64,000 bases of DNA, taken from positions 128,001-192,000 of the forward strand of contig JBBQUR010000009.1 of NCBI GenBank assembly GCA_038212275.1, in the 5' to 3' direction. Below, piece after piece: positions 9,583 to 44,263 of the stretch. Below the pieces are notes generated by a model. That model did not search any database. It saw only the letters and a list, made by a program, of their open reading frames with translations, and had not been told where the DNA came from. A program made the position numbers and the translations under genes. The first letter of the stretch is position 1. Every line of letters starts with the position of its first letter. The DNA is from Planctomycetota bacterium. Lineage in GTDB: Bacteria > Planctomycetota > B15-G4.

Positions 9583-9586
9583 CGCG

Positions 9587-22039: not shown

Positions 22040-22145
22040 GGCGGAGCCTTCCGCGCGCCATCAACTCGGCGAGCGCTTCCGGCGTATGCTCGTCCCGCGA
22101 GCTCCGGCGTGCCCGTCCCGGGCAGGCAGTTCGCGGAGGTGGTGC

Positions 22146-22331
22146 ATGAACAAGTCGGCAACCGTCGCAAACTCGATCCTGTGGGCGGCGGCCATCATTG
22201 CCTCGGCCATTGTGTTGAAGGGCACGCCGCAGGCCTGGCCGATGCTCGGCATCCTGAGCGGCGCCGCCACGGCGTCCACGCTCCTTCTCGGGTCATCCTG
22301 CCGCCGGCAGGGGGCGCGCTCGCAGAACTGA
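22146..22331 (+). CDS. small two-helix membrane protein
   Basis: 61 aa, GGAGG Shine-Dalgarno before the ATG, two hydrophobic segments. Confidence 0.6.
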   Translation: MNKSATVANSILWAAAIIASAIVLKGTPQAWPMLGILSGAATASTLLLGSSCRRQGARSQN

Positions 22332-22400
22332 GCTGCGCCGCGCGCCGCGGCCGCAGCGCGCCTCCGGTCCCTCGTGGCGTTACCGCCGTGGCGGCTGTGC

Positions 22401-23165
22401 TCAGCCGCCCGTGCCCCAGCGGCGGTGCAGGAAGCGCTCGGCGGGGGCGAAGAGAAGTTTGTCGGCGAGCAGGCCGATGAGCACGATCACGAACATGATG
22501 CCGAGGACCTGGTCCATGGCGTGCAGTTCGCGGCCGTAGTGCAGCAGGTGTCCGAGGCCGAGGCCGCTGAGGATCGTGACGTAGATCTCCGCGGCCATGA
22601 GCGAGCGCCACGCGAAGGCCCAGCCCTGCTTCATGCCGGAGACGATGAAGGGCAGCGACGCCGGCATCGTCACGAAGAACAGCGTGTGGAAGCGCCGGCT
22701 GCCCATGGTGCGCGCGGCGCGGGCGTAGATCGGCGGCGCGTGGCGCACGCCGTTGTCCGTCGCGATGAGGATCGCCCACAGCGTGCCCATGACGACGACG
22801 AACTGCATCGCCATCTCGGTCTGCCCGAACCACACGAGCGCGAGCGGCACCCAGCACACGGACGGCAGCGTCTGCATGCCCAGCGCGAGCACGCCGAGCG
22901 TGTCCGAGCAGGCGCGGAATCGCGCGGTGAGGAAGCCCAACGGCAGTCCGAGCAGCAGCCCGATGGCGTAGCCGGACAGCAGCCGCCTGCCGGTGACGAA
23001 AGCGGCATCGAGCAGCGTGCCGTCCAGCAGCGCGCGCCACAGGTAGCGACCGACGGCCGACGGATCGGGCAGCAATACGGGTGACCAGCGCCCGCTATTC
23101 GCGAGCAGGTGCCACGCGAAGATCAGGGAGGCGAAGAACAGCGTGCCGATGACGAAGCGCTTCAT
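22401..23165 (-). CDS. ABC transporter permease (SsuC/TauC/NrtB type)
   Basis: LLPDPS, QTLPSVCWVPL, ARAARTMG, AFAWRSLMAAE, GLGLG. Confidence 0.9.
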   Translation of the reverse strand: MKRFVIGTLFFASLIFAWHLLANSGRWSPVLLPDPSAVGRYLWRALLDGTLLDAAFVTGRRLLSGYAIGLLLGLPLGFLTARFRACSDTLGVLALGMQTLPSVCWVPLALVWFGQTEMAMQFVVVMGTLWAILIATDNGVRHAPPIYARAARTMGSRRFHTLFFVTMPASLPFIVSGMKQGWAFAWRSLMAAEIYVTILSGLGLGHLLHYGRELHAMDQVLGIMFVIVLIGLLADKLLFAPAERFLHRRWGTGG

Positions 23166-24349
23166 GGCGCCTCTCCCTTGCGACGCTCGCCCCTGCGACG
23201 TTCGTCGCGCGCGGGATCGTCGGCTCCTTCGAGCCCGGTGTCGCTGCCGGCGATGGCGTCAGCGGCCTCCTCCGCCTCCGCGCCTTCGCCGCCCGCGGCG
23301 ACCTCGGCGGGCAGCTCGCCGCGGAAGGGCGCGTCGGGGCCGGCGCCTGCGGCGCGCTGCTGACGCCAGGGCTCGCCGTGCTCCGGGCCGTCGCCGCGCT
23401 GCGTGACGCCCGCGTGCACGTCGCCCGAGTGCGCGTCGGCCTCGCGGCCGAAGATGTCGCGCGGATCCATGCGCCGCGCGAAGTCCATCGCATGGCCGCC
23501 CAGCGACTTCAGCGACAGGCCACCGCGCTGGCGCGCACGCGAGCCGAAGCCGTTGGTGGGGAGATGACTCTTGAGAGCCTCGGTGATGTGCGCCGACAGC
23601 TCCGCGAGCGCCGCGCTATTCACGTTGCGCGGCCGGGGCAGGTCGATGACGAACTCCTCGCGGATGCGCCCCGGGTGCGGCGAGAAGAGGATGACGCGGT
23701 CGCCGAGGCACACGGCCTCGCGCACGTTGTGCGTCACGAAGACGAGCGTTTTGCGCCGCGCGGCCCAGATGCGCTGCAGGTCGAAGTACAGCACGTCGCG
23801 CGTCAGCGCATCGAGCGCGGCGAAGGGCTCGTCCATGAGCAGCATGCGCGGGTTGGGGGCGAGCGAGCGCGCCAGCGCGACGCGCTGCTTCATGCCCCCG
23901 GAGAGCTCGTGCACGTTCGCGTGCTTGAAGTCCTCCAGCCCAACCATGTCGAGGTAGAAGTCGGCCAGTTCGCAGCGCGCCTTGGGGTCCAGCCCGGGCT
24001 TGAGCTTCAGGCCGAAGAGCACGTTGTCGTAGACGTCGAGCCACGGGAAGAGCGCCGACTCCTGGAACATGACCATGCGGTCGCGCCCCGGCGAGGTGAC
24101 CGGGACGCCGTCCGAGAGCACGCGCCCCTTGTCCGGGAATTCCAGGCCAGCCGCCATGAAAAGCAGCGTGGACTTGCCGCAGCCGCTGGGACCCACCAGG
24201 CACACGACCTCGCCTTCGTTCACGGTGAGGTTGATGTCGGCCAGCGCCTCGACGCTGCCGCCGCGCGCGGTACGGAAGGTCTTGCCGACCGACTCGAGCA
24301 CCAGCTTGCCCGGTGCCGCATTCGCTTCGCCTTGCGCCGCGGACATCAC
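23162..24349 (-). CDS. ABC transporter ATP-binding protein (SsuB/TauB type) with long low-complexity C-tail
   Basis: GPSGCGKST, LSGGMKQR, LLMDEPFAALD, VTHN, LPRPR. Confidence 0.92.
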   Translation of the reverse strand: MMSAAQGEANAAPGKLVLESVGKTFRTARGGSVEALADINLTVNEGEVVCLVGPSGCGKSTLLFMAAGLEFPDKGRVLSDGVPVTSPGRDRMVMFQESALFPWLDVYDNVLFGLKLKPGLDPKARCELADFYLDMVGLEDFKHANVHELSGGMKQRVALARSLAPNPRMLLMDEPFAALDALTRDVLYFDLQRIWAARRKTLVFVTHNVREAVCLGDRVILFSPHPGRIREEFVIDLPRPRNVNSAALAELSAHITEALKSHLPTNGFGSRARQRGGLSLKSLGGHAMDFARRMDPRDIFGREADAHSGDVHAGVTQRGDGPEHGEPWRQQRAAGAGPDAPFRGELPAEVAAGGEGAEAEEAADAIAGSDTGLEGADDPARDERRRGERRKGEAP

Positions 24350-25362
24350 GGCACGACCACGAGGTTTGCGAGGTCACCCGCGTCGGTGAGGAAGCCGGCC
24401 GTCTGCGCCGCCTTCACGAAGTCGCGCAGCTGCTCGATCGCGAGGGCGTTCGTGACGTGCAGTCGCGGCCAGCAGTGAGCGATGAGCTCCGGCTTGACCG
24501 GACTGTGCGTCTCCTCGGTCAGCTCGGCGGCCACCAGCGCCTGGGCCTCGGCTGGGTGCGCCTCGATCCATTCCGTCAGCTCCGCGTGCGCGGCCACGAA
24601 GCGCTTTGCGAGGTCCCGGTGCTCCTCAAGAAAAGCGGTGCTGCACGCGAGCACCGTCGTGATCGCGTCGTCCTCGGACAGCATGATCCGGCCGCCGCAC
24701 TCCAGTTCGAGGCGCGAGACCCAGGGCTCCACGGTCCACACGCCGTCCAGCGCGCCGGACACGAAGAGGTCCAGCTGATCGGGGTTGGCGGTCGGGAGCA
24801 CGCTGACATCGCCGCCCGTCTGCGTGACGTGGAAGCCCTGGGCCGCGAGCCACGCGCGGCAGGACACGTCCTGCGTGTTGCCGAGCTGCGGCGTCGCGAT
24901 CCTGCCGCCGCGGAAGTCCTCGGGTGCGGCGATGCGTCCGTCGCCGTGGACCACCAGCGCCGCGCCGCCGTTCGTGGCGCCTGCGAGCAGGCGCACCTCC
25001 GCGCCGCCGGACCTGATGTACGCATTGAGCGCCGGGTTCGGGCCGACGTAGGTCACGTCGAGCGAGCCCGAGAGGATGGCCTCCATCGCGCTGGGCCCCG
25101 CATTGTACGTGTACCACTCGATGCGCACGTCCGGCCCGAGCCGCTGCTCGAACCAGCCCTCGCCCTTGCGCGAGAGCGCGTGCGCCACGAGGCCGTGCGC
25201 GTGCGTCACGTTGGGAAAGTGCCCGACGCGCAGGACCTGAGCGGCAGGCGGAGCGCCGGATTCGGAGGAGGGGCCGGACGCGGGAGTGCGGGAGTCGCCG
25301 CAGGCGGCGAGTCCCGCGAGAAGCGCGAGGGCTGGAAGTCGGGAGAGCGGCCGCGTGTGCAT
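24346..25362 (-). CDS. ABC substrate-binding lipoprotein (aliphatic sulfonate SsuA-like)
   Basis: lipobox LAAC; GHFPNVTHA, NAGP, YVGPNP, ATPQLGNTQDV, EPW. Confidence 0.88.
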   Translation of the reverse strand: MHTRPLSRLPALALLAGLAACGDSRTPASGPSSESGAPPAAQVLRVGHFPNVTHAHGLVAHALSRKGEGWFEQRLGPDVRIEWYTYNAGPSAMEAILSGSLDVTYVGPNPALNAYIRSGGAEVRLLAGATNGGAALVVHGDGRIAAPEDFRGGRIATPQLGNTQDVSCRAWLAAQGFHVTQTGGDVSVLPTANPDQLDLFVSGALDGVWTVEPWVSRLELECGGRIMLSEDDAITTVLACSTAFLEEHRDLAKRFVAAHAELTEWIEAHPAEAQALVAAELTEETHSPVKPELIAHCWPRLHVTNALAIEQLRDFVKAAQTAGFLTDAGDLANLVVVP

Positions 25363-25439
25363 GGTTGTGGACCTCGGGCTGTGAAGCGGGGCAACACCTG
25401 GCCGGGCCGTTGAGCTCGCCAGGCGGCGCGCGCTCCAGA

Positions 25440-25455
25440 TGCAACTGCCATGCCG
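25440..25455 (-). promoter_or_regulatory. sigma54 (-24/-12) promoter for the ABC operon
   Basis: minus strand CGGCATGGCAGTTGCA = GG-N10-GC with TTGCA, ~78 nt upstream of the ATG at 25362. Confidence 0.65.
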
Positions 25456-25671
25456 TCGTCGGCGGCGGCGTACGAAGGCCCTGGTTCGGCCCTTCGTGCC
25501 CGTTCGTGCGGGATGACCACGGGCGCGCGGCAAGCGGACGGGCGCGCTGCGACCTGCTGCCGCGGCGCGCCCGCAAGTTTCACGGGATGCGGCCATCACG
25601 GGTCATGGCTTCCCGTGTCCCGTGACGGCCGCGGTCCCCCGGCCGTCTCGTGCCGGCCGGTCTCGGAGGAC

Positions 25672-26967
25672 TCAGAACTGGATCTGGTACTGAAGGCGGA
25701 TGCGGTCCTGGTCGGGAGTGGAGCCGTCGTTGTCCAGCTTGCTGTAGTCGAGCTGCCACTTGCCGTTGTTCTTGTCGACGTAGTAGTTCACGCCGGCCGA
25801 GTACTCGTTCTTGTCGTCCGCGGACTCGTAGTTGATGTGCGAACTGCGCGCGACGACTTCCCAGCGGTTGGGAACGAGGAAGTATCCGACCTGGAACGTG
25901 TCGCCGGAGTCATGCATGCCGTCGGCGTTGTTGAGGTTCGCGTTGCGGTCGTAGAGTTCCGCGAGGAGCGACCAGGGGCCGGAGAAGACCTGCGCGTCGA
26001 TACCCGACGTGTTGGTCTGGGCGCCCGGCGTGACCGTGGTCTTGCCGGTGGAGTCGTCGTTCTGCATGAACGAGGCGCCGATGGCTGCCTTCGTGCTGCC
26101 GTCGTCGACCGTCGAGAACGACATGCCCTCGGCCTTGAGCGGCACGTCGTTCACGTTCCAGACGATGCGCGCCGACTTGCGCAGGCCGTTGCGGTCCTCG
26201 CCCGCCGCATTGCTCGCGCCGGGGCCCTGGCCGTTGCTGATGTCGGCGTAGTACTCGAACATGCCGTCCCCGAGGATGCCGTGGAGCATGGCGCCCGGTT
26301 CGTACGAGGGCGCGAACTCCGTCGACGCGATCGAGCGTTCGATGAGCGACAGCCCCCAGCTGGAGATCAGCTCCTCGCGCCCGAACGGCACCTTGAACTG
26401 TCCGAAGCGCAGCGCGGCCAGCGGGCCGAAGGCCCAATTGATGTAGCCGTCGCGCAGGGAGGAATTCTTGGTGGTGGAAGACGAGGTGAAGCTGCTCTGC
26501 GTGGGGATGTCGAACTCGAGCTTGTAGGTCACGTTTTCAGCCCCGGCCTTGCCCTCGAAGCCGACGTAGGCGCGCGGGACGCTGAAGTTGGTGCCGTCAC
26601 CGGTGTCGGCGTCGGAGTTGTCGTTCTCGGCACGCACCTGCATCTTGCCCTTGATGTTCATGGACCACTTGCCGTCGGCGGACCGGAAGTCCAGCTTGCC
26701 GGGCTGCCCGCCGCGCACCATGACGTCCGGCGCCTGGAGCCGCTGCAAGCTGGCCTCGATGAGCGCCACCTCGTTGGCGTGCGCATCGACGCGCTGCTGG
26801 GCGAGCTGCTGCAGCTCGGCGTACTCGGCGTCATTGATGAGCCCGCGCGCCTTCAGCACGTCGAGGATCGCGAGGTCGAGGGAGTCGTCGGTGGATTGGG
26901 CCGCGGCCGCCGCTGGCAGCGCCAGCACCGCGGCAGCAACGAGAAGACGGGTCGTACGTCGAAGCAT
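25672..26967 (-). CDS. OprO/OprP-like (anion-selective) porin
   Basis: signal peptide; RDGYIN, RFGQFKVPFGREELISS, IERS motifs; C-terminal QYQIQF beta-signal. Confidence 0.85.
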   Translation of the reverse strand: MLRRTTRLLVAAAVLALPAAAAAQSTDDSLDLAILDVLKARGLINDAEYAELQQLAQQRVDAHANEVALIEASLQRLQAPDVMVRGGQPGKLDFRSADGKWSMNIKGKMQVRAENDNSDADTGDGTNFSVPRAYVGFEGKAGAENVTYKLEFDIPTQSSFTSSSTTKNSSLRDGYINWAFGPLAALRFGQFKVPFGREELISSWGLSLIERSIASTEFAPSYEPGAMLHGILGDGMFEYYADISNGQGPGASNAAGEDRNGLRKSARIVWNVNDVPLKAEGMSFSTVDDGSTKAAIGASFMQNDDSTGKTTVTPGAQTNTSGIDAQVFSGPWSLLAELYDRNANLNNADGMHDSGDTFQVGYFLVPNRWEVVARSSHINYESADDKNEYSAGVNYYVDKNNGKWQLDYSKLDNDGSTPDQDRIRLQYQIQF

Positions 26968-27056
26968 GGAGTGTTCCCGGGCACGAGAGGGGACGCGCCG
27001 CGGGGACGCGCGCGCGTCCCGGTTCCGCGGTGCGCACCAGGGGTCGCGGGGGGCAG

Positions 27057-27072
27057 AGAAAAAACCGTGCCA
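27057..27072 (-). promoter_or_regulatory. degenerate sigma54 promoter for the porin gene
   Basis: minus strand TGGCACGGTTTTTTCT: perfect -24 box, TTTC instead of TTGC at -12, ~90 nt upstream of the ATG. Confidence 0.4.
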
Positions 27073-27245
27073 CCTCGCGGGTGCGCCCAATGCCAGCGCG
27101 GCCGGCCAACGGGCGTTGCGCGTGTGCGCCACGACGATTCGAGCCGTTGCCGAGGCGTGCGTGCGCAGCTTCGCGTGGTGCCGGTGGCGTGTACCCGTTG
27201 CCTATACTGGCGCGGCCATGAACGCTCCGTGACCCGACACGGGCG

Positions 27246-27261
27246 TGGCACGGCGTTTGCA
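27246..27261 (+). promoter_or_regulatory. consensus sigma54 promoter upstream of the bEBP gene
   Basis: TGGCACGGCGTTTGCA matches TGGCAC-N5-TTGCA exactly. Confidence 0.8.
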
Positions 27262-27290
27262 AACTCCACGTCCTCGTGACCGGACTCCCC

Positions 27291-28865
27291 ATGCCATTCC
27301 TGATCGAGGCCTGGCGCCAGGCCTGTCGCCACAGCGAGATCGGCGACTCGGTGGCCAGCCTTGCGCCGCTCATCGCGAGCCAGATTCCGCTGCAGGCGCT
27401 GCTCGTGCGGCGGTTCGACGCGACGCTTGGTCGGTTGGAGACCGTGGCGGCGGTGGGTCCCGGGCTGCCGTCGATCGGTGCGCGCACGGAGCTGGAGTCG
27501 TCGCAGAGCATGGCGCTGCTTGCGTGGTGCAAGGCCGGCGCCATCCTGCACGCGTCCACCTCGGCGCCGACCACGCTGATCACCGCTCTGCTGCCGCAGG
27601 GGCCGACCGGCGATGTCCTCGCGGGCCCGCTGCGCGAGGGCGAGCAGGCCGTGGGCGTCGTGCTGCTCGTCGGCTACCCGGGCAGCAGTTTCGACAGCCA
27701 GCACGAGACTGTGCTGGCGTCATTGCTCGAGCCGATCTCCGTCGCGCTCTTGAACGACCGCCGCGTGCTGGAGCTGGCGCGGTTGCGCGAGGCGGTGGAG
27801 GCCGACAATCGCGCGCTGCTCACCCGCCTGCAACGCGACGACATCAGCGATTCCGTGGTTGGCGCGGAGGCCGGCCTCGCCGGCGTCATGGAGCAGGTGG
27901 GCCAGGTGGCGCCCACCGAAGCCCCTGTGCTCATCCTGGGCGAGACCGGCTCCGGCAAGGAGGTCATCGCGCGTGCGATCCACGAGCGCAGCCGCCGCTC
28001 CGCCGGGCCGGTAGTGCGCGTGAATTGCGGCGCGATCCCGTCCGAGCTCGTGGACAGCGAATTGTTCGGGCACGAACGCGGCAGCTTCACGGGCGCCGTG
28101 AATGCGCGCAAGGGCTGGTTCGAGCGCGCCGACGGCGGCACGCTCTTCCTCGACGAAATCGGCGAGCTTCCGCTCGCGGCGCAGGTGCGCCTGCTGCGCA
28201 TCCTGCAGGACGGCAGCTTCGAACGCGTGGGCGGTCATCGTCCGCTGAGCGTGGACGTGCGCCTCGTGGCCGCCACGCACCGCGACCTGCAGGAGATGGT
28301 GGCGCAGGGCGGCTTCCGCCAGGACTTGTGGTACCGCATCAGCGTCTTCCCGATCCGCCTGCCGGCGCTGCGCGAGCGGCGCGGCGACATCGCGGCCCTC
28401 GCGCGGCATTTCGCGCAGCGCGCGGGCCTGCGTCTCGGTGGCGTTGCGCTGCAACCGTCGGCGGACGACCTGGCGCAGCTCGCCGCGTATGACTGGCCCG
28501 GCAACGTGCGCGAGCTGGCATCGGTGATCGAGCGCGCGACGATTCTCGGCGGGGGCAGGCAGCTCAACATCGCGGCCGCGCTCGGCGGCGGCCAGCGGCC
28601 CGCGGCTCCGTCCGCAGCGGGCAGTGCGCACGAGGCGCAGGGCGACCCGACGGTCGCGGCATCCGGCGCCGCGGCACAGCACGCAGCCTCGCTCGATGCC
28701 GCGATGATCGGACACATCGAGTCCGCTCTCGTCGCGACGGGCGGCCGCATCGAGGGGCCGTCAGGCGCCGCGGCCCGTCTCGGCATCAATCCCCACACGC
28801 TTCGCGCCCGGATGCGCAAGCTCGGCATCGACTGGGGCCGCTTCCGCACGCCGCCGGATCGGTAG
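27291..28865 (+). CDS. sigma54-dependent enhancer-binding protein (GAF-like/AAA+/Fis HTH)
   Basis: GETGSGKE, ELFGHERGSFTGA, LFLDEIG, WPGNVREL, AAARLGINPHTLR; alternative GTG start at 27276. Confidence 0.93.
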   Translation: MPFLIEAWRQACRHSEIGDSVASLAPLIASQIPLQALLVRRFDATLGRLETVAAVGPGLPSIGARTELESSQSMALLAWCKAGAILHASTSAPTTLITALLPQGPTGDVLAGPLREGEQAVGVVLLVGYPGSSFDSQHETVLASLLEPISVALLNDRRVLELARLREAVEADNRALLTRLQRDDISDSVVGAEAGLAGVMEQVGQVAPTEAPVLILGETGSGKEVIARAIHERSRRSAGPVVRVNCGAIPSELVDSELFGHERGSFTGAVNARKGWFERADGGTLFLDEIGELPLAAQVRLLRILQDGSFERVGGHRPLSVDVRLVAATHRDLQEMVAQGGFRQDLWYRISVFPIRLPALRERRGDIAALARHFAQRAGLRLGGVALQPSADDLAQLAAYDWPGNVRELASVIERATILGGGRQLNIAAALGGGQRPAAPSAAGSAHEAQGDPTVAASGAAAQHAASLDAAMIGHIESALVATGGRIEGPSGAAARLGINPHTLRARMRKLGIDWGRFRTPPDR

Positions 28866-28925
28866 AGTGCAGGCGCCGCCAGGCGCCCGTCGCCCGGCTT
28901 CATCGCTCTGCGAGAGGAGTCCGCC

Positions 28926-29990
28926 GTGCCGTCCGATCCGCATCCCGTCACCGATTGCTGCGCACCGGCGTCCGCGCGGCCCGATCCTTCCGCTCCGACC
29001 GACGCGGACTGCCGTCGCGCAGTGCTCGACGTGTATGCCGCCGCGGCCACGGCGCCCGACAGCAGCCTGTGCTGCGTCGCGGGCACGCAATGGACGTTGC
29101 CCGGCCTGCACGTGCCGCCGGTGATGCACGAGATGAACTACGGTTGCGGCTCGACGGTGAACCCGGGCGATCTGTCGGGCACGCGGCCGATTCTCTACGT
29201 CGGCGTCGGCGGCGGGCTCGAGGCGCTGCAATTCGCGTACTTCCGGCGTCAGCCCGGCGGCGTGATCGCCGTGGATCCCGTCCCGGAGATGCGTGAGGCT
29301 GCCGCGCGCAACCTCGCGCTGGCCGCGGAGAGCAACCCCTGGTTCCGCCCGGAGTTCGTGAGCATTCTCGACGGCAGCGCGGAGGCCCTGCCCGTCGCGG
29401 ATGGCAGCGTGGACGTCGTCGCGCAGAACTGCCTTTTCAACGTCTTCGTGGACGGCGACCTGCGCGCCGCGCTCTCCGAGGTGCATCGCGTGCTCGCGCC
29501 CGGCGGCCGTTTCTCCACGAGCGATCCGATCGCGACGACGCCCATCCCCGAGGCGCTGCGCCGCAACACGACGCTGCGTGCGCGCTGCTGCTCCGGCTGC
29601 CGCACCTACGACGAGTATCTCGCGGCGCTGGCCGAGGCAGGCTTCACGCGCCTCGTCGTGCGCGCGCGACGCCCGTATCGCCTGCTCATGCCGCACGAAT
29701 TCCAGGAACTGTCCGCGCCGCTGCTGCTCGAAAGCATCGACCTGCTGGCCGTGCGCACCGGCGCTCCGACGGGCGCCGCGGACGCGGGATCCGCCCGCGC
29801 ACCGCTCGAGGTGTTCACCGGCCGCACCGCGATCAATGCCGGCGTCGCTCCGATCGAGTTGCGCCACGGCGTGCTGCTGCTGCCCGGCCAGCCGCTGCCC
29901 GTGTCCGATACCACGGCCGCGGAGCTCTCGCTGCGCAACGACGTGCTCGTCACGCCGCCCACATACCACGCCGAGCCGGGTTGCTGCTGA
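28926..29990 (+). CDS. arsM: arsenite S-adenosylmethionine methyltransferase (cyanobacterial/arsenosugar-type ArsM)
   Basis: LCCV, MNYGCG, LYVGVGGGLEALQFAYF, VAQNCLFN, ARRPYRLL, FTGRTAI and C-terminal GCC recalled from this ArsM subfamily; GAGGAG RBS. Confidence 0.8.
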   Translation: MPSDPHPVTDCCAPASARPDPSAPTDADCRRAVLDVYAAAATAPDSSLCCVAGTQWTLPGLHVPPVMHEMNYGCGSTVNPGDLSGTRPILYVGVGGGLEALQFAYFRRQPGGVIAVDPVPEMREAAARNLALAAESNPWFRPEFVSILDGSAEALPVADGSVDVVAQNCLFNVFVDGDLRAALSEVHRVLAPGGRFSTSDPIATTPIPEALRRNTTLRARCCSGCRTYDEYLAALAEAGFTRLVVRARRPYRLLMPHEFQELSAPLLLESIDLLAVRTGAPTGAADAGSARAPLEVFTGRTAINAGVAPIELRHGVLLLPGQPLPVSDTTAAELSLRNDVLVTPPTYHAEPGCC

Positions 29991-29991
29991 G

Positions 29992-31107
29992 ATGAGCGAC
30001 GATGCCGCCTTCGCCCGCCTGCTCGTCGTCGGCGGATTTCTCGGCGCAGGCAAGACCACGGCGCTGCTGCGCCTCTCGCAGCTCTTCCACGACGAGGGCC
30101 GGCGCGTCGCGCTCATCACCAACGACCAGGCCGACAACCTCGTGGACACGGCCAGCCTGCGCGTGCGCGGCTTGCGTGTCGAGGAAGTCGCGGGCGCCTG
30201 CTTCTGCTGCAAGTTCGACGATCTCGCGCAGAAGGCCGAGCTGCTCGTCGCGCAGGAGCGCCCGGATGTGCTGCTCGCGGAGCCGGTGGGAAGCTGCACG
30301 GACCTCGCGGCCACGGTCATCGCGCCCTTCCGCCGGATCTACGCGGGCCGCATCGACGTCGCGCCGTATTCCGTGCTGGTGGACCCGGCTCGCGCGCGGC
30401 AGCTCGTGCTCGAGCGCGGCTTCGGCGGCTTCTCGGCCAAGGTCGCCTACATTTTCCTGAAGCAGCTCGAGGAGGCGGACGTCATCTGCGTGAGCAAGGC
30501 CGACCTGCTTGCGGGCGAGGCGCGTGCGACGTTGCTGGACGCGCTGGCGCGGGAGTTCCCGAAGGCCGCGGTGCTTGCGACTTCGAGCGTCACCGGCGAG
30601 GGCTTCGCTCGCTGGCGCGAGCTGCTCGGCAGCGGCGCGGCAGCGGGCACGCACATCGTGGATGTGGACTACGACACCTACGCCGAGGGCGAGGCAGAGC
30701 TGGGCTGGCTCAACATGGCGCTGCGCCTGGACGCCGAGGCGCCCTTCGAGGCCGATGCCCTGGCGACGGCGCTGGTCGCCGCGCTGGCCGGGCGGCTTGC
30801 GGCACGCGGCGCGCAGGTCGCGCACCTGAAGCTGCTCATCGAGGCGGATGGCCGCACGTCTGTCGCCAATGCCGTCGGTGGCGCGAGCGGCACGCGGCTG
30901 TCCGTGGCGTCGGGAGCGAGGACGCGTCGTGCGCAGCTCATCGTGAATGCCCGCGTGGCCATCGACCCGCAGGCGTTGCGCGCGCTGGCCGATGCGGTGC
31001 TCGTCGCCGAGCTCGCGCGCGTCGGCGTGCATTCCGCTCTCGTCGAGAGCGCGCACTTCCGCCCGGGCCGCCCGGTGCCCACGCACCGCGACGCCGCGAA
31101 CGCGTGA
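29992..31107 (+). CDS. COG0523/CobW-family metallochaperone GTPase
   Basis: GGFLGAGKTT, ITND, GACFCC (CxCC), EPVG, KQLEEAD, SKAD. Confidence 0.88.
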   Translation: MSDDAAFARLLVVGGFLGAGKTTALLRLSQLFHDEGRRVALITNDQADNLVDTASLRVRGLRVEEVAGACFCCKFDDLAQKAELLVAQERPDVLLAEPVGSCTDLAATVIAPFRRIYAGRIDVAPYSVLVDPARARQLVLERGFGGFSAKVAYIFLKQLEEADVICVSKADLLAGEARATLLDALAREFPKAAVLATSSVTGEGFARWRELLGSGAAAGTHIVDVDYDTYAEGEAELGWLNMALRLDAEAPFEADALATALVAALAGRLAARGAQVAHLKLLIEADGRTSVANAVGGASGTRLSVASGARTRRAQLIVNARVAIDPQALRALADAVLVAELARVGVHSALVESAHFRPGRPVPTHRDAANA

Positions 31108-31144
31108 CGCCGTGACGCCGTGACGCCGCGACGCCGCGACGCCG
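31105..31144. repeat. 8-bp tandem repeat x5 (YGACGCCG) between convergent stop codons
   Basis: tgacgccg x3 then cgacgccg x2, flanked by inverted cgcgtgacg/cgtcacgcg. Confidence 0.85.
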
Positions 31145-31513
31145 TCACGCGTGATAGAAGCGTTCGTGGACGATCCTGCCGCCGCGCCACCGTGCGCGTG
31201 ACACCTGCTCGAGGTGCACGCTCGTGCCGTCGTTGAGCACGAAGTCCGAGACGGACTCGACGAGGCTCGTGTCGCCCTCGACCGCGAGCGTCATGACCTC
31301 GTAGCGCTTCCACTGCTTCACCGATGCGATGAACTCGGCCTCACGCAGCTTGTTCGCGGGCAGGCCGACGCACGGCGTGCCGGAGTTCAGCTGCCGCTCG
31401 ACCTCGGGCGCGTAGAACTCGTCCATGGCTTCGGCGAGGCGCCCGTCCGCAAGGTAGCTCTGCAGGTCGGTGACGCGTTCGCTCGTATCCACTCGGGCGT
31501 TGCCGGCGGCCAT
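31145..31513 (-). CDS. SnoaL-like / NTF2-fold protein
   Basis: 122 aa; EAMDEFYA..., VEGD, WRGGRIVHERFY. Confidence 0.75.
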   Translation of the reverse strand: MAAGNARVDTSERVTDLQSYLADGRLAEAMDEFYAPEVERQLNSGTPCVGLPANKLREAEFIASVKQWKRYEVMTLAVEGDTSLVESVSDFVLNDGTSVHLEQVSRARWRGGRIVHERFYHA

Positions 31514-31610
31514 GGGTGAGTCCTCGGTGCGGGAGTTCGTCTGGACGGACAGGAGATGGTGCGGGAGGGCGCTGCTGCGGCCCTTGTGCTTGCGCGGTGA
31601 TTCAGCCGGT

Positions 31611-32738
31611 TCAGCCCGCGGGGCGCACTGCAGCCGGCGAGACGGCCGCCTGTGCGGCGGGGTCCTGCGTGCCGAGCTGCGCGGCGTCGGCCTGCGCGGC
31701 GGCCGCCGCCACCTGCGATGCCTGCGCCGTCGCGACCTCGGCCAGCGCCTGCTTGAGGATGGCGAAGGTGATGTACCACCCGATGACGAGCAGGATGACG
31801 CACTGCATGAGCGGCGCATCGGGGAGCACGGCGGTGTCCCACAGCCCGTGCAGCACCACGGCCACGATCCAGCGGCGCACGACGATGGGGTGGCGCAGCA
31901 GGTCCCACGTGAAAGGCTGCGTGCCACGCGCCTGCCAGAGCGCCGCGCCGATCATCGCGGTCCAGATGACATGGCCACCCGGCGAGAGCAGGCCGCGCCA
32001 GAGGATGGAGCCGAAGACTCCGTCGCTCTGCCAGGCGTAGCCCGCGGACTCGTAGCCGGCGAAGCCCGCGCCCACGGCTGCGCCGAAGAGCAGGCCATTG
32101 AGCTGCCAGCGCCAGCGCAGATTCTTCAGCACAAGCAGCAGCGCGAGCGCCTTGGCGGTCTCCTCGATGACGCCGGTGAGCAGCGCGGGCACGAAGTTGT
32201 ACGTGCCCGAGCCCGGGATGACCTGCGCGAGCAGCATCGTGATGAGCAGGCCCGCCGCGCCGCCGAGCAGCGTGAGCCTTCCCACCTGATAGACCGACAC
32301 GTTGCGCGGCGTGTTCATCTCGAAGAAGAACACCACCACCGACAGCGGCACGACGAACGCGCCGATGACCACGAGCCCCGGGAAGAAGTTCGGGTTGTCG
32401 AACTCCGTGATCCCGATGCGCAGCAGCATGTACGTGGCGATGGCGCCCACGAGAATGCGCCACCAGACGCGCGGCCGCGGCCAGCCGGCGGGGATGGCGG
32501 AGAGCGGCGGCGTCGTCGTCGCGGTGCCGACGGCGAAAAGATCCTCGGCCGGGCCTTCCTCCGAGATGCCGCCGCTGAGCACGTGGCCCACGGGCACGTC
32601 GCCGATCTCCGGCACGCCGGCCATCGCGCTGAGCCTGCCGCCCAGTGACGCAAGCATGCCGCGCGGCGCCGGGTCCGGCATCGCGCCCGGCGTCGGACCA
32701 GAAGCGGGAACCGGCGAGGGACTCGAGCCGTCGCTCAC
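31611..32738 (-). CDS. PrsW family intramembrane metalloprotease
   Basis: IEETAK, GFAGYES, H...HGLWD motifs within multiple TM helices. Confidence 0.88.
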   Translation of the reverse strand: MSDGSSPSPVPASGPTPGAMPDPAPRGMLASLGGRLSAMAGVPEIGDVPVGHVLSGGISEEGPAEDLFAVGTATTTPPLSAIPAGWPRPRVWWRILVGAIATYMLLRIGITEFDNPNFFPGLVVIGAFVVPLSVVVFFFEMNTPRNVSVYQVGRLTLLGGAAGLLITMLLAQVIPGSGTYNFVPALLTGVIEETAKALALLLVLKNLRWRWQLNGLLFGAAVGAGFAGYESAGYAWQSDGVFGSILWRGLLSPGGHVIWTAMIGAALWQARGTQPFTWDLLRHPIVVRRWIVAVVLHGLWDTAVLPDAPLMQCVILLVIGWYITFAILKQALAEVATAQASQVAAAAAQADAAQLGTQDPAAQAAVSPAAVRPAG

Positions 32739-32748
32739 GCGGCGCTCC

Positions 32749-33084
32749 CTAGTCGTCCACGTCCATGCCGAGCTTCTTGCGTCCGGTGGGCGAGATCATC
32801 TCGGCGCCCCATGGCGGATCCCAGACCACGTTCACGTTGCAGCCCTTGACCCCGGGCACCGCGAGAATCTTGGTCTCGCACTCCTTGGGGATGGAGGCGG
32901 CCGACGGGCAGCTCGGCGACGTGAGGCTCATGGTGAGGTTCACCTGACCGTCGCTCGCGACATCGAGGCCGTAGACCAGGCCGAACTCCACGATGTTCAC
33001 CGGGACCTCGGGGTCGTACACGGTGGCCAGCGCGGCCATGATCGGCTCGCGCAGCTCCTTGGCGGGGTCCTGGGTTTCGGTCAT
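32749..33084 (-). CDS. DUF59/SufT/PaaD-type metal-sulfur cluster assembly factor
   Basis: VYDPEVPVNIVEFGLVY, TSPSCP, VVWDPPW; GGAG RBS before ATG 33084. Confidence 0.9.
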   Translation of the reverse strand: MTETQDPAKELREPIMAALATVYDPEVPVNIVEFGLVYGLDVASDGQVNLTMSLTSPSCPSAASIPKECETKILAVPGVKGCNVNVVWDPPWGAEMISPTGRKKLGMDVDD

Positions 33085-33282
33085 CGCTGTCTCCATTGCG
33101 TCCGCAGTCCCTGTCGACACGCCGGATGGCGAGGCGGCGCGGGCTGATCGGGGCGACCCCGCACCATCCGCCGGCGGACAGAGCGCACGATAGCGGATGG
33201 CGCGCGCCCGGCAAGCCGGAAGCCGGATCGCCCTCTCGGGCGCACGGTGCCGGCGGGTGACGGAGCAGCCGCCAGCTGGCGA

Positions 33283-33317
33283 CAGGGCCGTCCGGACACA
33301 GCATCCGGACGGCCCTG
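33283..33317 (-). terminator. GC-rich hairpin downstream of paralogue A
   Basis: cagggccgtccgga-7 nt-tccggacggccctg perfect stem; no clear U-tract. Confidence 0.45.
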
Positions 33318-33369
33318 CGCCGGAGCGTGCGCGCAGCGCGCCAGCTCCTGCTTCGTTCAGCTCGGCCCG

Positions 33370-34416
33370 TCAGGGCTTGGCGAGCACGCCATTGTCCGAC
33401 GTGCCGTTGTCGAAGTTGTTGTTCAACTGGTCGAGGGCCGTGCTCAAGTCCGAGAGCGAGACGTCGCCGACGTTGTCGCCGTCCACGTCGATCGGCGCCG
33501 TGAGCGCGCCCGAGATGGCCAGGTTGGAGAGGTCAATCACCTCGCGCACGGACAGGCCGATGAGCTTCGCGTTCACGCCCTGAACGTAGACGAGTTCTCC
33601 GAGCTTGCAGGTGGTCTGGCTCTTCTTGAAGTCGAAGACGCCCGCATCGTCGAAGGCCAGGTTGAGCATGGCCGCAGCGAGCTGCCCGGCGAAGACGCCA
33701 GCCGTGGCGTTCGCCACGTCGGTTGCGTCCGCCGTGAACGCGCCGGGCGAGCTGCCTTCGGGCAGGAAGTTCTGCACCGCAGCGGACGTGGTCAGCAGCA
33801 GCGCATACTGCGTGTCCGCATCCGGGCCGTCCTTGTCGCCGAGGATGAGGCCGCCGGGGAAGACGTTCGCGAAGTTGGCATCGCGCAGGCAACCGGGGTT
33901 GTTGCCGGCGCACTTGGTGCCCCAGCCACCCTGGGTGAAGGTCACGAAGGCGCCCGCCTCGACATCACAGGGATGATTGCAGGCGCCGTCGACGATGCTG
34001 AGCGACGCGAGGTTCGAGATGCCGAAGGTCTTCGGCTGGTCGATCGCGACGGCCACGAACTGCCAGTACGCCACGATGCCGATGAGGGAGGCGTCGCAGG
34101 GCAGCTGGCGATCGCCCAGGCAGAGCACGCCGCTGCGCGGAATCGGCAGCGGGAAGACGGTGAGGAACGGCGGCGTGACGCAGAGGTCGCCGGCGATCGT
34201 GTGAGTCGTGCCGGTGTGGAGCGAGAGGACCACGAAGGCGGTCCAGTTGCCCGCGGGCATCGTGAAGCACTCGCCGAACGCGGTTCCGAGCGGAACCACC
34301 GGCGGGATGACGGTCAACTCGAAACCAGGATCTCCGGTGCAGGTCTGCGCCGTGAGACTCGATGAGAACAAACATGCGGCAAGGGCCATGGGAAGGGCGA
34401 GGCGGGTCAGGAACAT
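33370..34416 (-). CDS. secreted hypothetical protein, tandem paralogue A
   Basis: signal peptide; Cys-containing N-domain; TFTQGGWG, FAGQL, LNNNFDNG; clearly homologous to 34669-35721. Confidence 0.8.
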   Translation of the reverse strand: MFLTRLALPMALAACLFSSSLTAQTCTGDPGFELTVIPPVVPLGTAFGECFTMPAGNWTAFVVLSLHTGTTHTIAGDLCVTPPFLTVFPLPIPRSGVLCLGDRQLPCDASLIGIVAYWQFVAVAIDQPKTFGISNLASLSIVDGACNHPCDVEAGAFVTFTQGGWGTKCAGNNPGCLRDANFANVFPGGLILGDKDGPDADTQYALLLTTSAAVQNFLPEGSSPGAFTADATDVANATAGVFAGQLAAAMLNLAFDDAGVFDFKKSQTTCKLGELVYVQGVNAKLIGLSVREVIDLSNLAISGALTAPIDVDGDNVGDVSLSDLSTALDQLNNNFDNGTSDNGVLAKP

Positions 34417-34466
34417 GGGGGCGGGATCATGTGCTGATGGAGGAATTCTTGAGATATCGGCTTGAG

Positions 34467-34495
34467 ACAATATTTCGATCCAGGCATTTCGTCAA
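34467..34495 (-). promoter_or_regulatory. sigma70-type promoter of paralogue A
   Basis: minus strand TTGACG-17 nt-TATTGT; CTTGAGA direct repeat (34448, 34461) across the predicted start site; supports the ATG at 34416. Confidence 0.65.
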
Positions 34496-34580
34496 CCCGC
34501 ATGCCGTGCTCTGGCTCAATCGCGCCGTGCCAATCCCTGCCCAAGGCGCGCCGGGCAGGTGTCAGTCCGCCGGAATGGCG

Positions 34581-34617
34581 ACCGGGCCGTCCGGACATGG
34601 CGTCCTGACGGCCCGGT
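34581..34617 (-). terminator. GC-rich hairpin downstream of paralogue B, homologous to 33283-33317
   Basis: accgggccgtccggac-atggc-gtcctgacggcccggt. Confidence 0.45.
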
Positions 34618-34668
34618 GCTGGGGCCCGCGCGGGTCGCGCCGGCCCCTGAGTACGGCAGCTCAGGACC

Positions 34669-35721
34669 TCACGGCATGCCGAGCACGCCGTCGTCCTTCG
34701 TGCCGTTGTCGAAGTTGTTGTTCAACGTGTCGAGGGCCGTGCTGAGATCCGAGAGCGAGACGTCGCCGACGTTGTCGCCATCCACGTCGATCGGCGCCTT
34801 CAGCGCGCCTGAGATGGCCAGGTTGGAGAACTCGATCACCTCTCGCACGGAATGTCCCAGCAGCTTGGCGTGCACGCCTTGCGCGAAGACGAGGTCGCCG
34901 AGCTTGCAGAAGCTCTGGCACTTCTTGGAGTCGAAGACGCCGGCGTCGTCGAAGGCCACGTTGAGCATGGCCGAGGCGAGCTGTCCGGCGAAGACGCCGG
35001 CCGCCGTGCTCGTCACGTTGGTCATGTCCTCAGTGAACTTGCCGGGTGATCCGCCCGCGGGGAGAAACTTCTCCACCTTGCTGGACGTGGTCAGCAGCAG
35101 CGCGTAGTTCTTGTCATTGTCCGGGCCGTCCTTGTCACCAAGGATGAGGCCGCCGGGGAAGACGTCCTTGAAGTGGGCGTCGCGCAGACAGCCGGGATTG
35201 TTGCCGGCGCACTTGGTGCCCCAGCCGCCCTGGGTGTACGTCATGAAGGCGCCCGGCTTGACTTCGCAGGGATGATTGCAGGCGCCGTCGACGATCGTGA
35301 GCGAGGCGAGGTTCGAGAGGCCGAAGCTCTTCGGCTGGCCGTTCGACACGGCCACGAACTGCCAGTAGGCGACGATGCCGATGAGCGAGGCGTCGCACGG
35401 CATCTGGCGATCGCCGAGGCAGAGCACGCCGCTCTCCGGCATCGGCAGCGGGAAGATCGTGAGGAACGGCGGCGCAACGCCCAGATTGCCGGCGACGGTG
35501 TGCGTCGTGCCCTTGTGAAGCGACAGCACCACGAAGGCCGTCCAGTGGCCCGGCGGCGTCTGGAAGCACTCGCCGAACGGGGTCCCGATAGGAACCACCG
35601 GCGGAATGACGGTGATCTCGAAGCCCTGGTCGTGCGGGCAGTCCTGCGCGCGGAGTGTCGGGGCAAGCAGGCACGCGGCAATGGCCAGCGCCATGGGGAC
35701 TGCGAACAGTCTTCGTGACAT
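34669..35721 (-). CDS. secreted hypothetical protein, tandem paralogue B
   Basis: signal peptide; long identical blocks with paralogue A (e.g. PIDVDGDNVGDVSLSDLSTALD); alternative start 35766. Confidence 0.8.
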   Translation of the reverse strand: MSRRLFAVPMALAIAACLLAPTLRAQDCPHDQGFEITVIPPVVPIGTPFGECFQTPPGHWTAFVVLSLHKGTTHTVAGNLGVAPPFLTIFPLPMPESGVLCLGDRQMPCDASLIGIVAYWQFVAVSNGQPKSFGLSNLASLTIVDGACNHPCEVKPGAFMTYTQGGWGTKCAGNNPGCLRDAHFKDVFPGGLILGDKDGPDNDKNYALLLTTSSKVEKFLPAGGSPGKFTEDMTNVTSTAAGVFAGQLASAMLNVAFDDAGVFDSKKCQSFCKLGDLVFAQGVHAKLLGHSVREVIEFSNLAISGALKAPIDVDGDNVGDVSLSDLSTALDTLNNNFDNGTKDDGVLGMP

Positions 35722-35859
35722 GTGGAATGAATCCGAGCGAGGGCGAGGGAAGTTGTGCCCTGACATCGGCTCGAAGCAAATTGCGGCTCAAGGCATTCCG
35801 GCGACCGGCCGGCGACCGGCCGCCGCCGGGCAGGCGCCGGGCCGGCGCCGGGCCGGCGA

Positions 35860-36936
35860 TCAGGGGATCGTGATCGGGAACCCGAGCGGCGCGGTATCGA
35901 GCGTGGTGGAGGCGCCGCATCCGATCCACCGCAGCGTCACGGTCACGGCGTAGCTGCCCGCCGGGGTGTCCTCGGGGATTCCGAGGGAAGCCGTGACGAG
36001 CGTGTCGCCCTCTCTCACGGCGAGGATCTCGACAGGCCAGTCGAAGTCGGTCGGCCCGCCGGGTGCGGCGCCGGCGGGCACGGCCAAGACCGAGAAGCTC
36101 TCGAGCGCGGGATCCCAGGCTTCCGCAAGCCTCAACTGGAGAGTCATCTCATCGCCGATGCCGTGCGTGAGTTCGACGGCCTGCGTGGGCGGCAGCGCGA
36201 GAAGCGTAGCGAGCAGTTGCTCGAGCGACTGGCCCATCCACGACGACGGCACCGGATTCACCGAGAGGATGGCGTTCCACAGCTGCGTGTGAAATCGATA
36301 CCCGGTTCCTCCCGGGTTGTCGCTGACGATGGTGAGTCCGGCGATGGGACGCTGGCCCGGGTGCGCCATCACTTCCACGGGAAGCAGGCCATCGACGGCG
36401 GCGAGCAGCGAGCCGTCGGCGGCATAGGCTCGCACGTGCGTGAGGCCGCCCGTCCCGAAGAAGGGCGTGACGCGCACCGAGGACTGCGGGCTGTCGAAGA
36501 GCACGGACACGGCGCCCATGCCCAGGCTTCCGGGCGCGCACCCGTTGCCGGAGAGGCCGAGCATCGTGCCGATGAATTGCATGACGCCGTCCGAGTCGGG
36601 CCCGACCGCAAGTGAGAGCGGTGCGGCGGGAGTGCCCGAGACCACCTCGGTGCCCATGGCCGACAGGCCGACGCTCTGGCCGACGAAACACTCGCCGAAG
36701 GTGCCCACGTCGTCGTTGGGTCCGCGCAGGCAAAGCTGGCTCGCCGGCACGCAGTCGATCCCCTGAAACAACCAGTCGCAGGTCGACACGGTCGCCGCCG
36801 AGGCAGGCGAGTCGCCATCGGGCGCGGCCAGCGGCGCTGTCGCGAGCGACTGGAGCACGCCTTGTGCGGTGACTTCGGTTTGTGTCATCAGTGCAGGGAC
36901 AAGCGCCCAGATGCCGTGGCGCAGGCGTCGCGCCAT
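35860..36936 (-). CDS. secreted hypothetical beta-rich protein
   Basis: fills the gap between neighbours; plausible signal peptide; Ig-like C-terminus (IPEDTPAGSYAVTVTL); start uncertain. Confidence 0.55.
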   Translation of the reverse strand: MARRLRHGIWALVPALMTQTEVTAQGVLQSLATAPLAAPDGDSPASAATVSTCDWLFQGIDCVPASQLCLRGPNDDVGTFGECFVGQSVGLSAMGTEVVSGTPAAPLSLAVGPDSDGVMQFIGTMLGLSGNGCAPGSLGMGAVSVLFDSPQSSVRVTPFFGTGGLTHVRAYAADGSLLAAVDGLLPVEVMAHPGQRPIAGLTIVSDNPGGTGYRFHTQLWNAILSVNPVPSSWMGQSLEQLLATLLALPPTQAVELTHGIGDEMTLQLRLAEAWDPALESFSVLAVPAGAAPGGPTDFDWPVEILAVREGDTLVTASLGIPEDTPAGSYAVTVTLRWIGCGASTTLDTAPLGFPITIP

Positions 36937-37016
36937 TGCGCAGATCGCGAGACTCGTGACACGATGAGTGTCGTCATCCGGGAACCGCACCACTGTTTGG
37001 CGCCGAGAGTGTAACG

Positions 37017-40820: not shown

Positions 40821-40859
40821 ATCCGGCCGGCGACGGCCGCGCGCGCCTGCTCGCCGCCA

Positions 40860-41020
40860 TGCCCCGCGCTGCCCGCGCTGCCCACGCTGCCTGCGACGCC
40901 CGCGCTGCCTGCGACGCCCGCGCTGCCCTCGACGCCAATGCTGCCCTCGACGCCAATGCTGCCTGCGCTGCCTGCGCTGCCTTTCCCGCCAACGCCGGCA
41001 TCGCTGCCATCGCTGCCAGC
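40860..41020. repeat. degenerate 9/18-bp tandem repeat (GCTGCC core)
   Basis: e.g. cgctgcctgcgacgcccg x2, gctgccctcgacgccaat x2, gctgcctgc. Confidence 0.8.
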
Positions 41021-41037
41021 GACGTGAGTCCCTGTCC

Positions 41038-41066
41038 TTGCCGCGTCCCCAACAGCAGACTAGGCT
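41038..41066 (+). promoter_or_regulatory. candidate sigma70-type promoter for the methionine-synthesis gene
   Basis: TTGCCG-17 nt-TAGGCT, ~110 nt upstream of the ATG. Confidence 0.45.
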
Positions 41067-41178
41067 CCCCGGCCGATAGAGTGCGGCTATTCACGGCAGC
41101 CTCCGCCGCAACGCTCGCTCCAGCTCGCCTCCTGCCGTAACGTCGGCTCATCGCCTCAAACGTCCGCCCGGATCGCAC

Positions 41179-43095: not shown

Positions 43096-43114
43096 ACGGC
43101 TCTTTTTCGCGTAC

Positions 43115-43345
43115 GCGCCGGGGGTGCTGCCCGCGCGGTGTCGTGGGGACTGTGAGTCGGGCTGAGATTGCAGTGCGCCGGCGCGGGGGCTCCGGGCCGC
43201 TTCGGTCAACGACCCGCCATGCGGGGGCGGGTGACAAAGCGTGGGGCGCTCGTGGCGGTCGGAATCTTGCGGCCCGGAGCCCCCGCGCCGCGCACGTCAC
43301 TGCACGCTCGGCCGGTCGAGGGCGGGCGGGCAGCACCCCCGGCGC
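43115..43345. other. ~230-nt nested inverted-repeat element (candidate structured ncRNA or MITE)
   Basis: perfect 20-bp arms 43115-43134/43326-43345 and perfect 22-bp arms 43179-43200/43269-43290, plus apical hairpins. Confidence 0.7.
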
Positions 43346-43599
43346 TGCCGCTTCACGGCGCCGTTGCGACCGTGCGGAGGGTGAAGGTCTGGAAGTCCTG
43401 CCTCACGAGCATGCTCTGCTCACACTTTGGTTGCCATGACGAAGGACGGTTGTCGGGGCGCGGGAGGGGATTGAGAAGGGGCGCAGCATTGTCGCCGCGT
43501 CCTGGCGCGTGCGTTGAGGCGGAGAGAGGCGATCAGCCGTCGTCAGATCGCCGCGGCTTCGGATGATGCGAACACCTACACTCCGCTTCTCCTGATGGA

Positions 43600-43947: not shown

Positions 43948-44263
43948 CGCCTCCCGGCGACCCGCGGCGCGGCGTGAACGAGCTCGTCGCGATGGACCAG
44001 CGCGGCGGACCAGCGCGGCGGACCCGCGGATGCGGGGCGCTCAGGCGCCGACGTTGCCGATGGGCTTGACCTGGGCACCCTCCCGAGGGTGGTCGCGCAG
44101 GCGTTCGACCTGCCGGACTCGGGGTAGCGCGCGCCGCGACGGCAGGGCGACGCGATGCGCCGCGGCCCCGCGTGGCAGCCACCCCGGCAGTTGCTGGACA
44201 GGTCTGCCGAGTGCAAAGCAGAATCATGCGCGCGCACACACGAACCTGCAGGAGAGGTGATCC

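Follow-up and report, generated by a model that had tools for sequence, protein, structure and literature searches.

The 64-kb stretch of DNA analysed here (the window) belongs to contig JBBQUR010000009.1 of a Planctomycetota bacterium and has a G+C content of about 70%. It carries, on the minus strand, a gene for an outer-membrane porin and the three genes of an ATP-binding cassette (ABC) importer and, diverging from them on the plus strand, genes for a sigma-54 activator (a bacterial enhancer-binding protein, bEBP), an ArsM-like S-adenosylmethionine (SAM) methyltransferase and a COG0523-like GTPase (Table 1). An earlier note, made from the sequence alone, had listed these genes, their divergence, and the gaps of 60 nt between activator and methyltransferase genes and of 1 nt between methyltransferase and GTPase genes, all of which proved correct, and had read them as an undescribed sigma-54 regulon coupling uptake to metalloid methylation. 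We think it fairly probable instead that the locus consists of two independent modules, A (22401-28865, porin, importer and activator) and B (28926-31107, methyltransferase and GTPase), which have been joined inside an insertion of about 10.7 kb specific to this genome.

Table 1. Genes and candidate regulatory features of the locus, with positions in the window.
Feature	Position	Strand	Evidence or remark
Insertion of ~10.7 kb	22040..32740		Relative to 2 same-family genomes; carries modules A and B and, in addition, SnoaL-like and PrsW-like genes
ABC permease, NitT/TauT type	22401..23165	-	BPD_transp_1, 59.8 bits
ABC ATPase	23162..24349	-	ABC_tran, 111 bits; low-complexity C-terminal tail of ~130 aa
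Lipoprotein substrate-binding protein, SsuA/TauA-like	24346..25362	-	NMT1_2, 91.7 bits
-24/-12 element before binding-protein operon	25440..25455	-	CGGCATGGCAGTTGCA, 2 mismatches
TCACGG/CCGTGA half-site cluster, candidate activator-binding enhancer	25580..25628		Porin-binding-protein spacer
Porin_O_P anion-type outer-membrane porin	25672..26967	-	PF07396, 101 bits
Degenerate -24-like site before porin gene, doubtful	27057..27072	-	TGGCACGGTTTTTTCT, no GC at -12
Dyad	27227..27242		CCGTGACCCGACACGG; divergent promoter region, no gene end there
Consensus sigma-54 promoter before activator gene	27246..27261	+	TGGCACGGCGTTTGCA, exact TGGCAC-N5-TTGCA
Sigma-54 activator (bEBP)	27291..28865	+	Sigma54_activat (PF00158), 234.5 bits; GAF-like N-terminus, AAA+, HTH_8
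ArsM-like SAM methyltransferase, arsenosugar ArsM type	28926..29990	+	NF038099, 384.1 bits
G3E/COG0523-like GTPase, unnamed subfamily, CFCC motif	29992..31107	+	cobW, 78 bits

Three of the gene starts were chosen among alternatives. The open reading frame (ORF) of the binding protein extends to 25599, and its likely start at 25362 is the start of a lipoprotein signal ending in LAGLAAC; the porin ORF extends to 27132, with a likely start at 26967 and a signal peptide from ORF residue 56. The activator ORF can start at 27276 or 27291, and we use 27291 because the protein collection holds the 524-aa version. The permease, ATPase and binding-protein genes form one operon, each overlapping the next by 4 nt, and GAGGAG lies 7 nt upstream of the GTG start of the methyltransferase gene. 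The ATPase ORF does not end with the ABC domain: about 130 further residues, in which Ala, Gly, Glu and Arg are abundant, lead up to the permease start (23162-23560) and could be a genuine tail or a spacer that is not translated. The stop codon of the GTPase gene lies within a run of about eight 8-nt tandem repeats (GACGCCGT-like; 31086-31149), and a comparable repeat with a 7-nt unit is found after a gene at C5:163190-163290.

The limits of the insertion come from two genomes of the same family (G007 and G014), in both of which some 1.5 kb separate the M16 peptidase ortholog from the homolog of window 32761-33214; the intervening DNA is therefore an insertion in the window or else a deletion in the relatives. 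The PrsW-like query gave zero matches in five genomes of the family, and neither a tRNA gene nor a long direct repeat marks the ends of the island. Two more stretches of the window, 33300-41130 and 43005-47770, lack an equivalent in the syntenic parts of G007 and G014.

The methyltransferase and GTPase pair

Matches to Methyltransf_11, _25 and _31 identify a Class I SAM domain in the methyltransferase, which is 56-57% identical to proteins named arsenosugar ArsM by NCBI. Its cysteines C74 (YGCG), C169 (QNC) and C221 align with the YGCG, SNC and GEC arsenic-binding cysteine positions of solved ArsM chains, and the matching cysteines of CmArsM we take to be C72, C174 and C224, with C44 as the N-terminal one. 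These three residues are invariant in 40 homologs, as are C49 and the C-terminal C353, and C50 is at least 90% conserved in the same set; the HMMER alignments to solved ArsM begin only at residues 61-67. Sequence comparison thus supports an ArsM-like protein, and the enzyme is predicted to methylate As(III).

The GTPase is supported by its sequence as a COG0523-like, divergent G3E protein. Its invariant positions comprise the P-loop (GxxGxGKT, G14-T23), C70-F-C-C73, E97-G100 (ExxG-x-C102), D171 of the [NS]KxD motif and a distinctive C-terminal domain. Among solved COG0523 proteins, a profile reaches only YjiA, at 28 bits and with CFCC aligned with CICC, and the protein scores below the curated cut-offs of ZigA (51.2 against 600), CobW (50.8 against 332) and PRK11537 (33.7 against 361). 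The best folds for its AlphaFold model (pLDDT 93.6, pTM 0.91) are YjiA, HypB, UreG and MeaB. Sources name the family only generically, and the Protein Atlas leads only to generic G3E clusters. The invariant thiols of the CFCC motif would most likely bind As(III).

Neighbours of the GTPase gene were counted in the 80 best genome loci, taken from 300 confirmed relatives, and in 80 metagenome loci, of which only 44 have at least 1.5 kb upstream; six further loci from the same order as the window bring the total to 166. The family is widespread in Planctomycetota, Acidobacteriota and Omnitrophota. Genes for an ArsR-family regulator, a MIP channel, a methyltransferase or ArsS are found no more than 4 kb from the GTPase gene in 28 of the 80 genome loci and 17 of the 80 metagenome loci. 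In the genome loci the GTPase gene is adjoined by a MIP channel (18/80), an ArsR-family regulator (13/80) or a methyltransferase (10/80, all in the 58-64% identity group). Individual loci vary on this theme: L048 has the order ArsR, methyltransferase, MIP, transglutaminase-like, GTPase; the metagenome contig L146 (7696-11074) has a methyltransferase (29% identical), ArsS (Radical_SAM plus DUF3641) and then the GTPase; and L059 from Omnitrophota (7139-11395) has MIP, GTPase, an ArsE-family thioredoxin, a ModA-like binding protein and an ArsP_1 permease.

In about 12 genome loci (L045-L048, L062, L072, L075, L076, L083 and L100 among them) the MIP and GTPase genes are separated by one for a transglutaminase-core protein of about 390-710 aa, some of whose tblastn matches overlap other frames. 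A frame of about 125 aa upstream of the GTPase gene in 24 genome loci ('unk129') was dropped as a protein because its translation looked out of frame and it is the antisense of a divergent DegT/DnrJ aminotransferase gene.

How closely is module B tied to arsenic? Several observations weigh against the tie. The methyltransferase, for all its E value of 5e-115, misses the cut-off of the arsenosugar ArsM model NF038099 (400) by 16 bits and, at 110.8 bits against 263, is below that of NF008823, so that it falls under both ArsM cut-offs. In 52 of the 80 genome loci none of the four arsenic-type neighbours sought lies within 4 kb of the GTPase gene, and the arsenic link of the GTPase is therefore not universal; a divergent DegT aminotransferase stands beside the GTPase in 24 of the 80. 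ArsR-family regulators can, to judge from family names, sense other metals. It could accordingly be argued that selenium, tellurium or a thiol is the substrate of the methyltransferase and that the GTPase is an ordinary Zn, Co or Ni chaperone of the COG0523 type, under sensors of the ArsR/SmtB family, which responds to many metals; the related NCBIfam models do include selenoprotein variants and a CobW-related selenoprotein. Such a reading has to contend with the conservation of the three alignable ArsM cysteines, with the identity to NCBI-named arsenosugar ArsM proteins, with MIP, ArsS, ArsP_1 and ArsE-family neighbours in several phyla, and with a GTPase far under the ZigA and CobW cut-offs, and we regard it as unlikely.

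The earlier note had also remarked on the absence of arsR and arsS, and neither ArsR nor ArsS is encoded in the 64-kb window, but the same genome does encode ArsS (TIGR04167, 390 bits) on another contig (C3:236609-237583; L013 9580-10920), where it does not adjoin arsM and its neighbours are a DUF2064+GT2 gene and a sulfatase. ArsR-like tblastn matches in the genome fall only on contigs C10 and C4. The one at C4:262599-263312 is beside a weak methyltransferase match (NF038099, 19 bits), and the two may be a second ArsR-methyltransferase pair. ArsS is present in four of five relatives that hold the methyltransferase-GTPase pair, always on another contig, and in five of six when the sixth holder, G035, is included. 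In the window's own family, ArsS occurs in 13 of 15 genomes and a methyltransferase match (E <= 1e-20) in 0 of 15, so that ArsS may work here without this ArsM type; the two counts bear on how far ArsS depends on it.

With arsenic as the substrate, the ArsM-type methyltransferase, translationally coupled to the GTPase, would methylate As(III), and the GTPase would hold As(III) on its CFCC thiols and may hand it to ArsM or other arsenic proteins. The methylated product could then pass to ArsS, the radical-SAM enzyme whose gene lies elsewhere in the genome. Taken further, and tentatively, the CFCC G3E GTPases might constitute an undescribed class of GTP-dependent As(III) chaperone, whose cysteine triad captures arsenite for delivery to ArsM, to enzymes of the ArsS pathway or to MIP channels; if so, they would be the first chaperones of a metalloid to be driven by a nucleotide.

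Two probably independent modules in one island

Does module B belong with the sigma-54 activator encoded upstream of it? Methyltransferase orthologs of 64-67% identity are found in six genomes of the same order, and in all six loci the methyltransferase and GTPase genes are adjacent and the other neighbours are unrelated genes, with no activator, porin, binding protein, ATPase or permease within about 10 kb of the pair. No porin, binding protein or permease lies within 4 kb of the GTPase gene in any of the 160 genome and metagenome loci, which together with the same-order loci makes 0 of 166; near the GTPase in one metagenome locus there is a 42% AAA+-type match to the activator.

In the 60 related genomes searched, orthologs of the binding protein (41-44% identity) are present in five. 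Two same-order relatives, G024 (locus L043) and G030 (locus L044), have the order porin, binding protein, ATPase, permease, activator on the same strand, the block being closed by an activator ortholog of 60% identity over residues 5-520. Because it is colinear with the transporter in these two genomes and apart from the methyltransferase-GTPase pair, the activator is assigned to the transporter. In G024 the transporter block is on contig C22 and the pair on contig C46. The blocks in both genomes are flanked by genes of the methylmalonyl-CoA pathway (mutase, carboxyltransferase and a glyoxalase-fold epimerase-like gene). The synteny of porin and ssuABC-like genes that was to be looked for therefore exists, as a five-gene block with the activator, whereas the order bEBP-arsM-COG0523 is not conserved: the bEBP goes with the transporter, and in every other genome examined the transporter block and the pair occur apart from each other. 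What stands of the earlier interpretation is sigma-54 control of the porin and importer and the ArsM-like and COG0523-like assignments; what finds no support is the regulon coupling uptake to metalloid methylation.

A single functional regulon would require the activator to sense a metalloid or oxyanion and to induce porin-ABC uptake together with ArsM and the GTPase, the imported substrate then being methylated. The activator gene and arsM have the same orientation, no terminator lies in the 60 nt between them, and a consensus sigma-54 promoter is upstream, all as such a regulon would have it. The methyltransferase, GTPase and binding-protein queries each gave zero matches in the 15 genomes of the window's family, and both modules are present in another family (f4). 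This joint distribution, with one island for both modules, weighs against independence, and given the same island and the same odd distribution the modules may have a joint origin or a joint function. All promoter, enhancer and read-through statements for this locus are predictions. Against a single regulon stand the absence of transporter genes beside the GTPase at every one of the loci counted and the separate contigs of G024. In genus g16, moreover, the pair is present in five of five genomes and the transporter in one of five. The closest relatives of the methyltransferase are 89% and 84% identical and those of the GTPase 88% and 81%, whereas the best activator relative is 76% identical, and the 88-89% relatives are on contigs outside the activator's match list. 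The solved relatives of the binding protein, finally, bind sulfonates (taurine and alkanesulfonates). We hold a single regulon to be distinctly unlikely.

With two independent modules, module B would have lost its usual ArsR or its own promoter in this genome. In relatives, the pair is found behind ArsR or apparently behind its own sigma-70-like promoter; as a weak lead, three g16 loci (L052, L053 and L054) have a sigma-70-like TTGAC(T/A)-N17-19-ATCGT upstream of the methyltransferase gene. This g16 motif is missing from the 60-nt gap of the window, and neither the gap nor the sequence just upstream of it contains a terminator or a sigma-54-like site with fewer than four mismatches. Since module B starts 60 nt past the end of the activator gene and has neither an intervening terminator nor an ArsR, its transcription is probably due to read-through from the sigma-54 promoter. 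The wiring of arsM to the activator is not conserved and, because the junction is unique among the 166 loci, probably arose by accident as the island was assembled, not as a designed regulon. The locus serves as a caution that close adjacency within an island does not prove a shared regulon.

Predicted sigma-54 control of the porin and importer

The sigma-54 consensus was scored as TGGCAC-N5-TTGCA, with chance estimated from 100 shuffles and from a reversed control pattern. The three -24/-12 sites proposed earlier, at 27246, 25440 and 27057, fared differently. TGGCACGGCGTTTGCA, before the activator gene, is the sole exact consensus in the window, where 0.02 are expected and 2 of 100 shuffles reach one, and the 4.65-Mb genome has six exact matches against one for the reversed control pattern. 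CGGCATGGCAGTTGCA is not significant by itself because the window has 24 two-mismatch sites against 24.9 expected; it draws its support from a conserved position in two orthologous loci, a -24/-12 element being found 5' of the binding-protein gene in all three genomes (CGGCATGGCAGTTGCA in the window, AGGCATGGCCGTTGCC in L043 and CGGCACCACCATTGCC in L044), about 40-80 nt from the start codon. TGGCACGGTTTTTTCT, before the porin gene, is unsupported, because the GC at -12 is missing and the number of one-mismatch sites is near chance (3 against 1.7 expected, as in 22 of 100 shuffles). The genome encodes rpoN (TIGR02395, 378.6 bits against a cut-off of 277).

CCGTG…CACGG dyads precede the porin gene in the window, L043 and L044, and clusters of TCACGG/CCGTGA half-sites, defined as at least three half-sites within 120 nt, occur in the porin-binding-protein spacer of the same three genomes. 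Dyads and clusters are candidate enhancer sites for the activator. Less favourable to this assignment are the number of such clusters in the genome, 42, and their position after the porin stop codon; since the L044 half-sites are the arms of one long hairpin, the cluster at 25580-25628 could instead be a hairpin or terminator following the porin gene. Upon inspection, only the window's cluster among the 42 is both non-coding and accompanied by a correctly oriented sigma-54-like site. A second activator target at C5:163233, the one other cluster that the genome scan gave as non-coding with a sigma-54-like site, was considered and rejected, being a 7-nt tandem repeat with its 'promoter' inside a gene, and a cluster at window 35937-36015 is within an ORF and was taken as chance.

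The activator has a weak GAF_2 match at its N-terminus, and its AAA+ loop reads GSFTGA (GAFTGA-type). Control of the porin and ABC importer by sigma-54 and this activator is supported, as a prediction, by the five-gene synteny, the conserved -24/-12 site, the dyads and rpoN. The activator would be made from its consensus -24/-12 promoter, sense a ligand via the GAF-like domain and bind the CCGTGA/TCACGG dyads, and would then switch on the binding-protein/ATPase/permease operon from the site at 25455-25440. It would probably also switch on the dedicated anion porin and regulate its own consensus promoter.

What might module A import? Our best estimate, from its nearest relatives, is an organosulfonate-type anion. 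The best curated model for the binding protein is TIGR01728 SsuA_fam (152.8 bits, below the cut-off of 163.5), with SaoX and TauA the other best models, and the scores against the TauA and SsuA equivalogs are far under their cut-offs. Among solved structures it has three relatives only, namely TauA, E. coli SsuA and a Xanthomonas protein deposited as a 'nitrate transport protein'; the nearest of them bind taurine and alkanesulfonates, which speaks against the oxyanion or organoarsenical uptake suggested in the earlier note. The best NCBIfam matches of the permease are SaoP, NtrB, SsuC and TauC, all under cut-offs, and those of the ATPase are SaoA, TauB and NtrCD-like models. In G050, CysD and CysN/C genes diverge from the orthologous transporter. 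A good number of sigma-54 regulons are concerned with nitrogen, as sigma-54-controlled NitT/TauT transporters commonly are, and import of a nitrogen compound or inorganic anion (nitrate, cyanate or bicarbonate) would suit both these regulons, the NtrB and NtrCD matches and a porin of the phosphate/anion family, but with NrtA, CmpA and CynA models not among the matches of the binding protein, with SsuA_fam, SaoX and TauA as its best models and TauA and SsuA as solved relatives, and with the CysD and CysN/C neighbours of the G050 ortholog, it is very unlikely.

Comparison with known systems

Module A belongs to known kinds of system and would be an ordinary instance of substrate-inducible sigma-54 control, here in planctomycetes. 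A precedent exists in Pseudomonas, whose use of organosulfur compounds is under sigma-54 control of the SfnR type (Endoh et al. 2003, 2005; as cited in PMC8234197). Like SfnR, the activator would be a sigma-54-dependent regulator dedicated to organosulfur acquisition genes. It differs in its GAF-like sensor, in its place within a five-gene block with a porin and an SsuABC-like importer, and in its planctomycete host, and no monooxygenase genes adjoin the block in the window. With SsuABC and TauABC (SsuA 2x26, TauA 6ssy) the importer shares the three-component ABC architecture, and its binding protein matches SsuA_fam and the solved TauA and SsuA. Unlike these systems, it is below every curated cut-off and has a dedicated Porin_O_P porin and predicted sigma-54 control, whereas the sulfonate importers of E. 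coli are under CysB/Cbl control.

The new element of this locus is the arsenic-associated G3E GTPase subfamily, which is the part worth following and deserves a biochemical test. Arsenic biotransformation genes are widely used markers in environmental genomics, and if the association is true, an unrecognised accessory GTPase found in several phyla alongside arsR, aquaglyceroporin, arsM and arsS adds a component to arsenic handling, and the client range of COG0523-type proteins widens from metals to a metalloid. The literature searched, with subscription journals outside its scope, and including the part of PMC11672702 that was covered, contained nothing linking COG0523, CobW or G3E proteins to arsenic genes.

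The methyltransferase has the SAM fold and the YGCG, NC and C-x-x-G cysteines in common with ArsM/AS3MT (CmArsM 4fr0; Chlamydomonas 5evj; NF038099). It departs from them in an extra conserved C-terminal domain ending in GCC, in not being beside arsS, and in its pairing with the GTPase. ArsD is the As(III) chaperone of the ArsA pump and uses no nucleotide. The role proposed for the GTPase is alike in that a cysteine-rich protein would pass As(III) to a partner; the folds are unrelated, and the likeness is one of functional analogy only. Among the COG0523 G3E metallochaperone GTPases (YjiA 1nij/4ixm, ZigA and CobW), YjiA is the best fold match, and the GTPase shares with these proteins the P-loop, a CXCC at the same position and the two-domain architecture. 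Their sequence similarity to it is nevertheless very weak (28 bits for YjiA, 51 bits for ZigA), and there is no CobW_C Pfam match. The GTPase has a distinct conserved C-terminal domain (DYDxYAExEAxLGWLN, AHxK, NAR and RPGRPxP), and its gene is found with arsenic-type neighbours rather than in the Zur, B12 or nitrile-hydratase contexts of COG0523.

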